The position numbers and the translations under genes are program-made. This document shows positions 54,664-57,538 of a stretch of 64,000 nt of DNA, piece after piece. The stretch spans positions 4,415 through 68,414 of the forward strand of contig JBIOUG010000095.1 of the NCBI GenBank assembly GCA_044866775.1, in the 5' to 3' direction. The first letter of the stretch is position 1. Each line of letters starts with the position of its first letter. This stretch comes from Thermoanaerobaculia bacterium (GTDB lineage: Bacteria; Acidobacteriota; Thermoanaerobaculia; Multivoradales; UBA5704). Under the pieces are notes generated by a model. It saw only the letters and a list, made by a program, of their open reading frames with translations, was not told where the DNA came from and made no database searches.

Positions 54664-55016
54664 CTCCTTTCGTTGCTCAAGACGAGCGAGGAAGCGCTCC
54701 GGATAGAGCTCCGGGCGCTGGGGATACATCTCCGAGCGCTGGGGATACATCCCCGGTCGTTGGTGATGTATCTCCGGTTGTCGGTGATGTATCTCCCGTC
54801 ATTGGTGATGTATCTCCGGCCGTTGGAGATAGATCCCCAGGCGCTGGGGATGAATCTCCGGGCGCTGGGGATACATCCCCCAGGCGCTGGGGATAGATCC
54901 CCAGGCGTCGGGGATAGATCCCCGGGCGTGGGGGACACATCTCCGGCGGCTGCTACGACAACTTCCAGGGCCCGGATCGTCACCCCGCCCTCTGGCGCGG
55001 TTCCGCCGTCCGTCAC
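54660..55016 (-). CDS. possible heptad-repeat ORF spanning the 21-bp array (coding status unresolved)
   Basis: 118-codon ORF bounded by a GTGA overlap with the upstream gene (55013-55016) and an ATGA overlap with the downstream gene (54660-54663). It reads GDVSPTP GDLSPTP GDLSPAP then RRFIPSA RRYITND... Third-position GC is only moderate, and other frames are also open. Confidence 0.3.
   Translation of the reverse strand: MTDGGTAPEGGVTIRALEVVVAAAGDVSPTPGDLSPTPGDLSPAPGGCIPSARRFIPSAWGSISNGRRYITNDGRYITDNRRYITNDRGCIPSARRCIPSARSSIRSASSLVLSNERR
54694..54946. repeat. tandem array of about 13 units of 21 bp with a palindromic core (GGGGAT-AC-ATCCCC)
   Basis: Examples are gcgctggggatacatctccga (54715), gcgctggggatacatccccgg (54736), tcgttggtgatgtatctccgg (54757) and gcgctggggatagatccccag (54884). 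One unit has 22 bp (54862-54883). Confidence 0.9.
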
Positions 55017-55321
55017 GCCCCGAACTCCAGCGCCTCGGCCACCAGGAAGTCCCGCTCGGTGACGCCGTCGACCGCCGCCGTCGAGAGGTTGACGACGACG
55101 GTGCCCGGCGTCAGGGTCATCGTCGCTTCGCCCTCGTGGTAGTCGATGACGGAGGCGAGGGCGCTCGCGAAGGAGCTGCCGACGTAAAGGCTGGGGACGC
55201 TCCAGGTGCGGCGGATGGCCCTGCCGTCGCGCCGGAGCTCCCAGGTGGGGAGCCGCTCGAGGAGCGCTTGGATGCGCTCGGCCTTGAGCTGCTCGGTGAT
55301 GGGTCTGCGGCTCTCGTTCAT
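55013..55321 (-). CDS. pterin-4a-carbinolamine dehydratase (PCD/DCoH)-fold protein, catalytic His motif not conserved
   Basis: MNESRRPITEQLKAERIQALLERLPTWELRRDGRAIRRTW.....FASALASVIDYHEGEATMTLTPGTVVVNLSTAAVDGVTERDFLVAEAL parallels the PCD pattern, but YHEGEA replaces the HHP motif. A GGAGG lies 9 nt upstream of the ATG at 55321. Confidence 0.5.
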   Translation of the reverse strand: MNESRRPITEQLKAERIQALLERLPTWELRRDGRAIRRTWSVPSLYVGSSFASALASVIDYHEGEATMTLTPGTVVVNLSTAAVDGVTERDFLVAEALEFGA

Positions 55322-55385
55322 CTCAGGTTCCTCCAGGACTTCAGGGGCGCCGGGAGGCTCCAGTGCCTCCGGCGGGACAGCGGTC

Positions 55386-55447
55386 TTGCTACTCCAACCA
55401 AGCCCCCGCCGCTTCGCGGCCCACCCTGACCGGCTTCGCCGGTCAGC
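55386..55447. repeat. 62-bp element, copy 1 (inverted relative to copy 2)
   Basis: ttgctactccaaccaagcccccgccgcttcgcggcccaccctgaccggcttcgccggtcagc. It contains two hairpins, gccgc-ttc-gcggc and ctgaccggc-ttc-gccggtcag. It is intergenic, just 3' of the 55450..56940 gene. Confidence 0.9.
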
Positions 55448-55449
55448 GG

Positions 55450-56940
55450 TCATCGCGCCGCTCCTCCGCCGCGGCGGCGCGCGCCGGCGGCGGTGAAGGG
55501 AAGGAGGTTCGACTGCGGAGGACGGCGGCGCAGCGGCTCGGTCAGCGCCGGATCGAAGAGGACGCCGAGCCCGCGCAGCGGCCCCGGGCCTCCCGGCACG
55601 CGCTGCCCGAAGCGGCGCTGGAGGCCGGCGATGCGCTCGGCCTCGGCGCTCCCGCCGCGGAGCAGCCCGCGCAGCTCGCGCAGGAGGGCGCGCAGCTCGC
55701 TCGGCAGCGTCTCGGGGGCGAAGAGCGGCTCGATCTCGTCGGCCAGGGCGGCGAGACGCCCGCGCCGCTGCTCATCGGCAAACAGGACGGCGAGGTGGAA
55801 GGCCGCCGCGGCCGCCTCGCCCCAAGCGCTCGCCCCCTTGGCGGCGGCGAGCGCCTCGCGGAGCAGGCGCTCGGTCGCCTCGCGGTCGCCCGCCTCGGCG
55901 GTGAGCCAGGCCCGCGTCAGGAGGGCCAGGGCGGGAGTCCCCGCTCCCGCGGCCGTCGCCTGCCGCTCGGCCTCGGCGAGGGCCTCCTGCGCCGCCCATG
56001 GGTGACCGACCGCGGCGTGCATGAAGGCGAGGAGGAGCCGCTCGCGGAGCGCTTCGGCCGGCGCCAGCCACGCCTCGCGCAGCGCGAGCGACCGCCCGGA
56101 GAGCGCGAGCGCCCGCTCGGTGTCTCCCTCGCGGGCGTAGATCGCCGCCTGGTCGGCGACGGCGAGGGACTCCTCCACCGTCTCGCCCCTGCGGTGGAAG
56201 AGACTCTCCGCCCGCTCGAGCAGTGCCAGCGCCTCGTGGATCCGCCGCTGGCGGTCGCGGACGCCGGCGAGGAGGCGACAGAAGACCGCCGCCTCGACGT
56301 CCTCTGGATCGGCGATGTGGCTCTCCGCGACCCGGAAGGCCAGCTCGCCCGGGTCCTGGGGCAGCCGCTCGATGAGCTCGGTGTAGCCGCACAGCATGTG
56401 GACGCGCGCCTTCAAGTCGGCGAGGAGCGCCGGCGGCAGGCCGGCTTTCTCGACGGCGCAGCTCAGGTGGAAGGCGGCCTCGGCGAGCGCGTGGCCGCGG
56501 CTCGGGAAGGGGTAGCTCTCCTCGTAGGCGCGGTCGAGGACCCGCAGCAGGATGGCGACCGCCTGCGGCGCCGGCTTCTGCCGGAGCTCGCGCTCCATCT
56601 TCCTGACCGGCAGCGCGAGGAGCCCCTCGATCGCGGCGTCGGCCTCCGCGGCCGCCATGGCGACCGCCGTCGACGACGCGCTCGGCTCCGCAGCGAGGCG
56701 CGTGAAGACGCTCTCGTAGAGCTGACCGGCGAAGCCGGTCAGGGTGGGCCGCGAAGCGGCGGGGGCTTGGTCGGAGTAGCAAACCCGCGCCGCCCCGGCC
56801 TCGGGCGCGAGCTCCGGCAGCAGCCGGCGCACGCGGCGGCGGCAGAGGCGGCAGGCGAGGAGGTGATGGAGGTGCTGGAGCTGCGGGGCGGCGAGGCCGT
56901 CGGCCAGGCGGGCGAGATCGTCGAAGGGGACGTGCGCCAC
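55450..56940 (-). CDS. hypothetical regulator-like protein: N-terminal HxxxCxxC zinc-finger (zf-HC2-like) + alpha-helical/TPR-like body
   Basis: LQHLHHLLACRLCRRRV lies near the N-terminus. The body is long, Ala/Leu/Glu-rich and helical. The gene has a GTG start and is divergent from an XRE-type HTH gene. Confidence 0.55.
   Translation of the reverse strand: MAHVPFDDLARLADGLAAPQLQHLHHLLACRLCRRRVRRLLPELAPEAGAARVCYSDQAPAASRPTLTGFAGQLYESVFTRLAAEPSASSTAVAMAAAEADAAIEGLLALPVRKMERELRQKPAPQAVAILLRVLDRAYEESYPFPSRGHALAEAAFHLSCAVEKAGLPPALLADLKARVHMLCGYTELIERLPQDPGELAFRVAESHIADPEDVEAAVFCRLLAGVRDRQRRIHEALALLERAESLFHRRGETVEESLAVADQAAIYAREGDTERALALSGRSLALREAWLAPAEALRERLLLAFMHAAVGHPWAAQEALAEAERQATAAGAGTPALALLTRAWLTAEAGDREATERLLREALAAAKGASAWGEAAAAAFHLAVLFADEQRRGRLAALADEIEPLFAPETLPSELRALLRELRGLLRGGSAEAERIAGLQRRFGQRVPGGPGPLRGLGVLFDPALTEPLRRRPPQSNLLPFTAAGARRRGGGAAR
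56721..56782. repeat. 62-bp element, copy 2 (inside the 5' part of the 55450..56940 CDS, in frame)
   Basis: Its reverse complement matches copy 1 at 61 of 62 positions. It encodes CYSDQAPAASRPTLTGFAGQ within the protein. Confidence 0.9.
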
Positions 56941-57121
56941 CGATCGTTCCTCAGCCGCGCGGGAGGCGGGCGGGCGCTGGCGCCCAAGGGGTGCAGGAGA
57001 CGCGATAGCAGGTGTGATCGCCGGTCATTGCGGTTGATCAGACCAGCAACAGGTGGAGTTGTCAAGCCCCGTCCCCGCTGACAGGTGCAATGCACCGGCT
57101 GCACCGGTATAGACTCCCTTC

Positions 57122-57538
57122 GTGGAACCCCGCCCGCCGGGACGGCTCGACACGGAGACCATGCGGGAGGCGCTCAGGCGCCGCATTCGCCGTGAGGGGC
57201 TGACCCTGCGTCAGGTCGAGGAGCGGCTGGGGCGGAAGGGCGACTACCTGCGGCAGGTGCTGGCCGGGAAGATCGACCTGCGGTGGGACCACGTGGCCGG
57301 CATCCTCGCCGCCCTCGGCGTCCACCCCGTCGAGTTCTTCGAGGAGGTCTACGGCCCGGCGCCGAGCCGCGCCGCGCCGGCCGGCTCCGCGGCCACCCCG
57401 TACGCGACGAGCAGTCAGCTCGTCCGCTGGTCGAGCCTCCGCGTCCTCATCTGGGAGTTCAAGGAGAAGGGCATCTTCACGGCCGAGGAGGCCGAACGGT
57501 TGCTGGCGAAGCTCGAGAGCGAGCCGCCGCCGGTGTAG
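57122..57538 (+). CDS. XRE-family helix-turn-helix transcriptional regulator
   Basis: LTLRQVEERLGRKGDYLRQVLAGKIDLRWDHVAGILAALGVHPVEFF. The start is uncertain: a GTG at 57122 or an internal ATG. Confidence 0.7.
   Translation: MEPRPPGRLDTETMREALRRRIRREGLTLRQVEERLGRKGDYLRQVLAGKIDLRWDHVAGILAALGVHPVEFFEEVYGPAPSRAAPAGSAATPYATSSQLVRWSSLRVLIWEFKEKGIFTAEEAERLLAKLESEPPPV

Follow-up and report, generated by a model that had tools for sequence, protein, structure and literature searches.

Why should one gene carry a 62-nt sequence in frame inside its coding sequence (CDS), and nearly the same sequence, inverted, just behind its stop codon? The locus that raises this question belongs to an uncultured Acidobacteriota metagenome-assembled genome (MAG; 5.8 Mb, 196 contigs, 71.7% G+C, 92% complete) and lies in the window, that is, the whole 64,000-nt stretch of DNA analysed here (C95:4415-68414, from the 69-kb contig C95). 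The best reading is that two insertions left the inverted repeat behind as a side product: it probably consists of two oppositely oriented copies of a low-copy, non-autonomous 62-nt insertion element, of which this genome has received at least four.

The inverted repeat comprises two hairpin-bearing copies in and behind one gene

BLAST aligns positions 55386-55447 with the reverse complement of 56721-56782 at a single mismatch in 62 positions, and a repeat search extends the inverted arms to 55380-55447 and 56721-56788 (68 nt, 96% complementary, 1273 nt apart), for which 100 shuffles gave no expected match. Copy 1 (55386-55447), whose minus strand reads GCTGACCGGCGAAGCCGGTCAGGGTGGGCCGCGAAGCGGCGGGGGCTTGGTTGGAGTAGCAA, is intergenic: it starts 2 nt past the TGA of a 496-aa gene (55450-56940, minus strand, stop 55450-55452) and stops 64 nt short of the ATG (55321) of a Pterin_4a (DCoH-fold) gene (55013-55321, minus strand), so that it occupies the 5' leader of the latter, i.e. 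the spacer after the 496-aa gene. Copy 2 (56721-56782) has the opposite, plus-strand orientation and lies within the CDS of the same 496-aa gene, where it forms codons 53-73 of the open reading frame (ORF), reading V-CYSDQAPAASRPTLTGFAGQ in frame. The net insert there is 63 nt long (56722-56784) and encodes the peptide VCYSDQAPAASRPTLTGFAGQ. The segment enclosed by the two copies measures 1273 bp (55448-56720).

Each copy carries two hairpins, which on the plus strand are CTGACCGGC-GAA-GCCGGTCAG (55426-55446 and 56722-56742) and GCCGC-GAA-GCGGC (55408-55420 and 56748-56760). Both are predicted on either strand, as RNA and as DNA, with z-scores of -2 to -4.6, and both contain GCGAAGC in each copy, with C-GAA-G triloops as their loops. 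Mini-hairpins of the GCGNAGC type are exceptionally stable (PMC13037366). The initial annotation, which was made from the letters of the window, had reported the positions of the repeat, its one mismatch, its two GCGAAGC hairpins and the intergenic place of copy 1, all of which the repeat search, BLAST and folding bear out; its location of copy 2 at about codons 53-73 proves exact, and every factual statement in it holds.

The element occurs four times in this genome and in no other genome searched

The genome-wide BLASTN search proposed in the initial annotation reveals two further copies, giving four on three contigs of the whole assembly that are 91-98% alike. Copy 3, on contig C136 (C136:20878-20941; 63 nt), is 93-95% identical, and copy 4, on contig C20 (C20:56148-56209), is 91-98% identical depending on the extent compared; a GCGGAGC variant in the C20 copy still falls within the GCGNAGC consensus. 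The element can be written 5'-GCTG|ACCGGCGAAGCCGGTCAG GGTGGG CCGCGAAGCGG CGGGGGCTTGGTTGGAGTAGCAA-3'. A four-way alignment gives it sharp boundaries, GCTGACCGG...GTAGCAA, beyond which the flanks are unrelated. GCTG precedes all four copies on the side of hairpin 1, and its CTG pairs with a CAG inside the element to complete that hairpin. Terminal inverted repeats are absent: the ends, ACCGGCGAAG... (or GCTGACC...) and ...GGAGTAGCAA, are non-complementary in any register.

Searches of other genomes, 91 from the family and 299 from the order, and of plasmids and viral contigs recovered no copy, and an exact 27-mer of the element is absent from 185,579 species genomes (one per species). Within the genome, half-element BLAST and a structural regular expression found more degenerate copies at chance level only, with 34 matches, four of them the known copies, against 24 in a reversed control. 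Rfam returned no relevant match for positions 54900-57200 at E<=10 and likewise nothing for the related loci. No further assembly of the species came up when the proteins of the HTH_31 and DCoH-fold genes were looked up by exact match.

Three insertion sites are empty in relatives and two bear 8-bp target duplications

Relatives offer an empty counterpart for three of the insertion sites (copy 1, copy 2 and C20), and perfect 8-bp target duplications border two of the four copies (copy 1 and C20), with none at copy 2 or at the C136 copy. At copy 1 the minus strand reads GACCGCTG, a 58-nt core, and GACCGCTG again. The upstream duplicate (55444-55451) takes in the GA of the 496-aa gene's TGA stop and ends in the 4-nt GCTG that is common to all copies and completes hairpin 1; the downstream duplicate (55378-55385) directly follows the core (55386-55443). 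The closest orthologous locus, on a metagenome contig from ENA (L022; protein 77% identical), has the same gene order, namely HTH_31, the TPR-like gene, the Pterin_4a gene and a 21-bp array. There the site is empty: the stretch of the downstream duplication is present once and the element is absent.

The C20 copy lies between the genes for type-2 isopentenyl diphosphate (IPP) isomerase (fni) and HMG-CoA reductase (hmgR). In four genomes of the same genus (L033-L036) the fni|hmgR junction reads ...CTCAAGGCCGCGACGCTGCACGGAAGGGCCGACCAATGAGC... and holds CGACGCTG once, i.e. ...GCGACGCTG^CACGGAAGGG..., whereas the present genome (C20:56100-56260) reads CAACGCTG, a 57-nt core, CAACGCTG and then CACGGAAGGG. 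The two genes overlap at ATGA in three of the four relatives, implying coupled translation. The insertion separates them by about 40 nt and turns the end of the IPP isomerase from ...TLHGRA* into TLTGGAGQGGPRSGGG*, which gives the enzyme a new 16-residue tail. An equal 8-mer at the spacing of the duplications occurs at 3.8e-4 of positions in this genome; for an 8-bp duplication at two of four copies this gives a chance probability of about 1e-6, not counting a modest correction for the choice of register.

The C136 copy is read through in frame by a Y_Y_Y/HD-GYP protein, whose C-terminal tail it alters; homologues of this protein (45-60%) end about 3-10 residues past the insertion point. Genomes of the same genus provide no orthologous empty site for this copy, as the upstream neighbour differs and no close HD-GYP orthologue is found.

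Copy 2 adds 21 residues to a variable linker of the 496-aa protein

Compared with a 63% orthologue (P0004, at locus L023) and a 50% paralogue on contig C62, the 496-aa gene has exactly 63 nt, or 21 codons, extra at copy 2. The alignment with orthologues suggested in the initial annotation thus finds the 21 residues absent from orthologue and paralogue alike. The join, ...cgg|ctc tac... (R|LY), is the same as in the homologues that lack the insert, and no duplication flanks it. The insert consists of CTG, the core and AC, and so resembles copy 1 plus a few flanking bases. A likeness of the element-encoded APAASR to APLVSR or EPAVSR of the homologues was set aside as a coincidence of high-GC codons (9 of 18 nt match).

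At its N-terminus the protein bears a conserved H-x3-C-x2-C motif; it further comprises the variable linker into which copy 2 went and a helical-repeat (TPR-like) body. Its family, without a Pfam model (a Pfam search of the protein gave no match), has many paralogues, with up to 10 matches per genome, and occurs in 41 of the 41 genomes of the taxonomic family that were searched. A shallow AlphaFold model (four sequences) leaves the linker unstructured (pLDDT 27-31) and predicts residues 95-470 to be helical, mostly with confidence except for a low-confidence stretch at 193-231. This prediction is consistent with an insertion that is tolerated, as in Rickettsia palindromic elements (PMC10969869).

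Further observations concern the gene and its surroundings. Members of its family include C62:25342-26745 and C186:68978-70387, and the 496-aa gene is paired with a divergent HTH_31 gene here as well as in L022 and L023; HTH_31, DUF4190 and Pterin_4a genes neighbour the inverted repeat. In L022 (4001-4060) the closest orthologue is without about 80 N-terminal residues, PFDDxxRL being joined directly to AAEAD, a deletion that removes both the H-x3-C-x2-C motif and the site of copy 2. Downstream of the gene module, the array of a 21-bp palindromic unit (window 54677-54969) recurs at L022:5640-5700 and L023:2240-2420 with a palindrome that differs per locus, GGGGATxxATCCCC here and GGGGAACATTCCCC in L023.

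How the copies may have been inserted

Among the readings offered in the initial annotation, the extra copies, the empty sites, the 8-bp duplications and the 21 residues missing from homologues speak for that of a small palindromic mobile element capable of in-frame insertion. The two duplications favour integration by a staggered cut: the element would enter at sites ending in GCTG via a staggered 8-bp cut, made by a trans-acting enzyme that is absent from the 92%-complete assembly. Insertion sequences (ISs) are often missing from assemblies of the MAG type. An invariable GCTG and two copies devoid of duplications would also be compatible with a single-strand or a repair-based route.

Several observations weigh against an inserted element of this kind. 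Without terminal inverted repeats it does not fit the classical model of a transposable element of the miniature inverted-repeat kind (MITE) moved by a DDE transposase, and copies 2 and 3 are without target duplication. No other sequence in the genome shares the termini of the element, and neither a parent IS or autonomous partner, nor a matching transposon end, nor a Y1 transposase was found in this MAG. There are four copies only, all in a single metagenome-assembled genome. Additionally, the ancestral state of site 2 is known from homologues of 50-63% identity only, and the linker differs from theirs by a further 18 nt.

A first alternative, doubtful yet deserving consideration, accepts only copies 1 and 4 as true transpositions and makes copy 2, perhaps also copy 3, a product of templated repair or template switching off copy 1, which would thereby have been duplicated in reverse orientation along with a few bases of its flanks. 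Copies 1 and 2, 1.27 kb apart, share 98.4% identity, whereas the distant copies reach 91-94%. Moreover, the CTG of the insert equals the last 3 nt of the upstream GACCGCTG of copy 1, its AC resembles the start of the downstream GACCGCTG with the G missing, and copy 2 has no target duplication of its own. In the preferred reading too, the composition of the insert, together with the high identity and the short distance, suggests that copy 1 gave rise to copy 2, either through a local hop or as a templated copy, and the single difference from copy 1 and the 1.27 kb between the two lead us to infer that it is the youngest copy. However, copy 2 may instead have transposed locally and then lost its duplication, and the ancestral sequence of the site is deduced from distant homologues.

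Mobilisation of single strands by an HUH/Y1 enzyme, in the manner of RAYT-driven repetitive extragenic palindromic (REP) elements and REPINs or of IS200/IS605 derivatives, would explain the lack of terminal inverted repeats, the subterminal position of the hairpins, which would be recognised by the enzyme, and the GCTG that abuts every copy on the same side, insertion taking place 3' of it. The two copies without target duplication fit this route as well, and Acidobacteria are known to have RAYT-like 'TIRYT' genes and GGGGWSAS-bearing repeats (PMC3733652). Nevertheless, we regard it as unlikely. Perfect 8-bp duplications, present at two copies, are not made by such a mechanism, and GTAG stands 15 nt from the nearest stem rather than at its foot. 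The Y1 family PF01797 is absent from the present genome (92% complete), in a search whose controls gave matches in six of 14 genomes, and from a closed genome of the same genus (G001). The TIRYT/RAYT lead, with its GGGGWSAS motif, proved unsupported: Y1 genes are also absent from the two Rhodobacteraceae genomes that bear the motif, and the Y1 genes of G038, a genome of the same order, are not flanked by its GGGGTGAG repeats.

Possible consequences of the inverted arrangement

The initial annotation had also raised long-range pairing between the 5' and 3' parts of the mRNA. If selected, such pairing would circularise one transcript or create an RNase III site controlling the 496-aa and DCoH genes. 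Folding predicts a 66-pair duplex of -161 kcal/mol, as against about -66 kcal/mol for four local hairpins, and this duplex belongs to the minimum free energy structure of a 1.6-kb transcript; the single mismatch becomes a G.U pair in the sense RNA, and RNase III is known to cleave element-borne duplexes in Correia elements (PMC10969869). On the other side, no relative has conserved the arrangement, which occurs in a single genome, the 5' arm, being part of the CDS, would be opened by translating ribosomes, and a transition mismatch has a 50% chance of being a G.U pair on either strand. A selected function is thus very improbable. Because the arrangement is unique to this genome, stems from two recent insertions and has a translated 5' arm, we take the predicted pairing for a possible side effect of the insertions. 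An intrinsic terminator was discarded as a reading of the element, which has no T-tract and gave no match.

A programmed switch, in which the 62-bp arms act as recombination sites and inversion of 55448-56720 toggles between the native 496-aa protein and its N-terminal fragment fused to antisense-encoded sequence, is extremely unlikely: the arms are long and nearly perfect, but the 69-kb contig has no serine or tyrosine recombinase (PF00239, PF00589), two unrelated loci each carry a lone 62-mer, relatives lack both arms, which are recent insertions, and the antisense product is rich in Arg, Gly and Glu and without homologue. The initial annotation had listed an invertible segment among its readings and noted the in-frame chimera that inversion would create. 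Its arithmetic is right, since the simulated inverted form is open in frame over 540 codons, but the open frame carries no weight, as the codon-aligned antisense frame is fully open over 424 codons in 62% of 1216 long ORFs with high G+C at third codon positions in this genome. Given that open antisense frames are the rule here, shadow ORFs such as the 572-aa plus-strand ORF at window 55363-57081 should not be read as genes. Homologous recombination could in principle invert the 1273-bp segment, and RecA could do so between the 62-bp repeats at low frequency; evidence for inversion there is none.

Returning to the inserted element, it is probably neutral or selfish, its surviving copies sitting at tolerated spots near stop codons or in a disordered linker. 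Among its side effects may be hairpins at transcript 3' ends and uncoupled translation of fni and hmgR; the two arms might further form an intramolecular 62-bp RNA duplex, or allow RecA to invert the segment on rare occasions.

How the element compares with known small hairpin repeats

Rickettsia palindromic elements are likewise small non-coding hairpin repeats that add a peptide in frame while the gene is kept, according to the portion of PMC10969869 that cites Ogata et al. 2000, and they are tolerated in surface or linker regions. Compared by description, those elements measure about 100-150 bp and form ten families with tens of copies, in Rickettsia only, whereas the present element is 62 nt long, has four copies in an Acidobacteriota MAG, shows 8-bp duplications at two sites and has one of its four copies within a CDS.

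Bacterial MITEs (Correia/CREE, ERIC, Chunjie, QMITE) share with it a small, non-coding and dispersed nature and target-site duplications, which the element shows at two of its four copies (PMC10969869), as well as insertion in operons and at gene 3' ends, with possible effects through RNase III or on mRNA stability (PMC10969869). MITEs are, however, defined by terminal inverted repeats that match a parent IS; the element has no such repeats, and no parent IS was found in the 92%-complete MAG. A classical MITE was accordingly rejected, terminal inverted repeats being absent. As for target duplications, comparison with empty sites confirmed perfect 8-bp ones at copy 1 and at the C20 copy, and there are none at copy 2 and the C136 copy.

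REP elements and REPINs, which are mobilised by RAYTs and include the 'TIR' repeats of TIRYTs, resemble the element in forming GC-rich stable stem-loops mostly just downstream of genes; they sometimes supply or overlap stop codons, and REPs within genes are documented (PMC3733652). In contrast to it, REPs are 20-40 nt long, bear a tag (GTAG or CGTC) at the stem foot, exceed 100 copies and are linked to RAYTs (PMC3733652). This class was rejected as well, for the GTAG of the element lies 15 nt 3' of hairpin 2, no tag stands at the stem foot, and there are four copies, no Y1 gene and 8-bp duplications. Elements derived from IS200/IS605 (PATE-like) have subterminal hairpins, have neither terminal inverted repeats nor target-site duplications, and insert 3' of a fixed tetranucleotide. 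The hairpins of the present element, its want of terminal inverted repeats and the GCTG flank at all four copies agree with this description; its 8-bp duplications at two copies and the lack of a Y1 gene do not.

Beyond these classes, a degenerate form of the core, GGGTGRG-GCCGCGAAGCGGC-GGGGGC, has matches in two Rhodobacteraceae genomes, a delta-proteobacterial MAG and the same-order genome G038, and none in a reversed-pattern control. A MITE of about 245 nt in G038, with at least 42 matches (L070-L099, e.g. L085 and L092), and the GGGGTGAG-hairpin-GAGGGGGC repeats of Rhodobacteraceae share with the element a 27-nt core, GGGTG(A/G)G + GCCGCGAAGCGGC + G(A)GGGGGC, after a GGCGAAGCC-loop hairpin. 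Full-length aligned copies in G038 show 15-nt terminal inverted repeats, CTAGCAGGGTGCTGA...TCAGCAACCTGCTAG, and possible CTAG target duplications, and contain a covarying chain of hairpins round GGGGTGAG-hairpin-CGAGGGGGC-loop-GCCCCCT; the family has no match in Rfam. Its terminal inverted repeats, its third, GGGGGC/GCCCCC hairpin and its at least 42 copies distinguish it from the element. A covariance model of its centre (R1; 17 sequences, 99 positions), searched against the window, L008 and L009, does not pick up any of the four copies at E<=10. Because the model misses all four, common descent of the element with the G038 family is not shown, and the resemblance is a lead, not membership.

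The Rhodobacteraceae repeats are intergenic (Pararhodobacter and Kangsaoukella; L051, L056, L057, L060-L062, L064, L066, L068 and L069) and have a GGGGTGAG-hairpin-GAGGGGGC-loop-GCCCCC core. Their hairpin has undergone compensatory changes, an upstream ...TTCTGTTYGRAAATAYYCC is conserved, and no Y1 transposase occurs in the genomes concerned.

Implications

Taken together, the element can be grouped with the small hairpin repeats already known, as a new variant among them. The 8-bp duplications without terminal inverted repeats do not fit the standard MITE, REP or IS200 models and may mean that an uncharacterised integration mechanism is at work. One could speculate, though we think it quite improbable, that the element represents an undescribed mode of mobility, in which a hairpin-ended 58-nt core free of terminal inverted repeats enters at GCTG-terminated sites with a staggered duplication of 8 bp, the CTG of the target completes the terminal hairpin and so guides target choice by structure, and the widespread GGGTGRG-hairpin-GGGGGC core of the Acidobacteriota and Rhodobacteraceae repeats serves as the recognition module of the enzyme.

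For the annotation of genomes with 72% G+C, the locus is a warning against inferring an invertible switch from long inverted repeats round a gene combined with an antisense frame that is open. For the biology of the organism, it offers a datable and clean case outside Rickettsia in which a hairpin repeat has been inserted in frame in a protein and the C-termini of two enzymes have been rewritten, with selfish DNA as a source of peptide novelty in a high-GC free-living bacterium.

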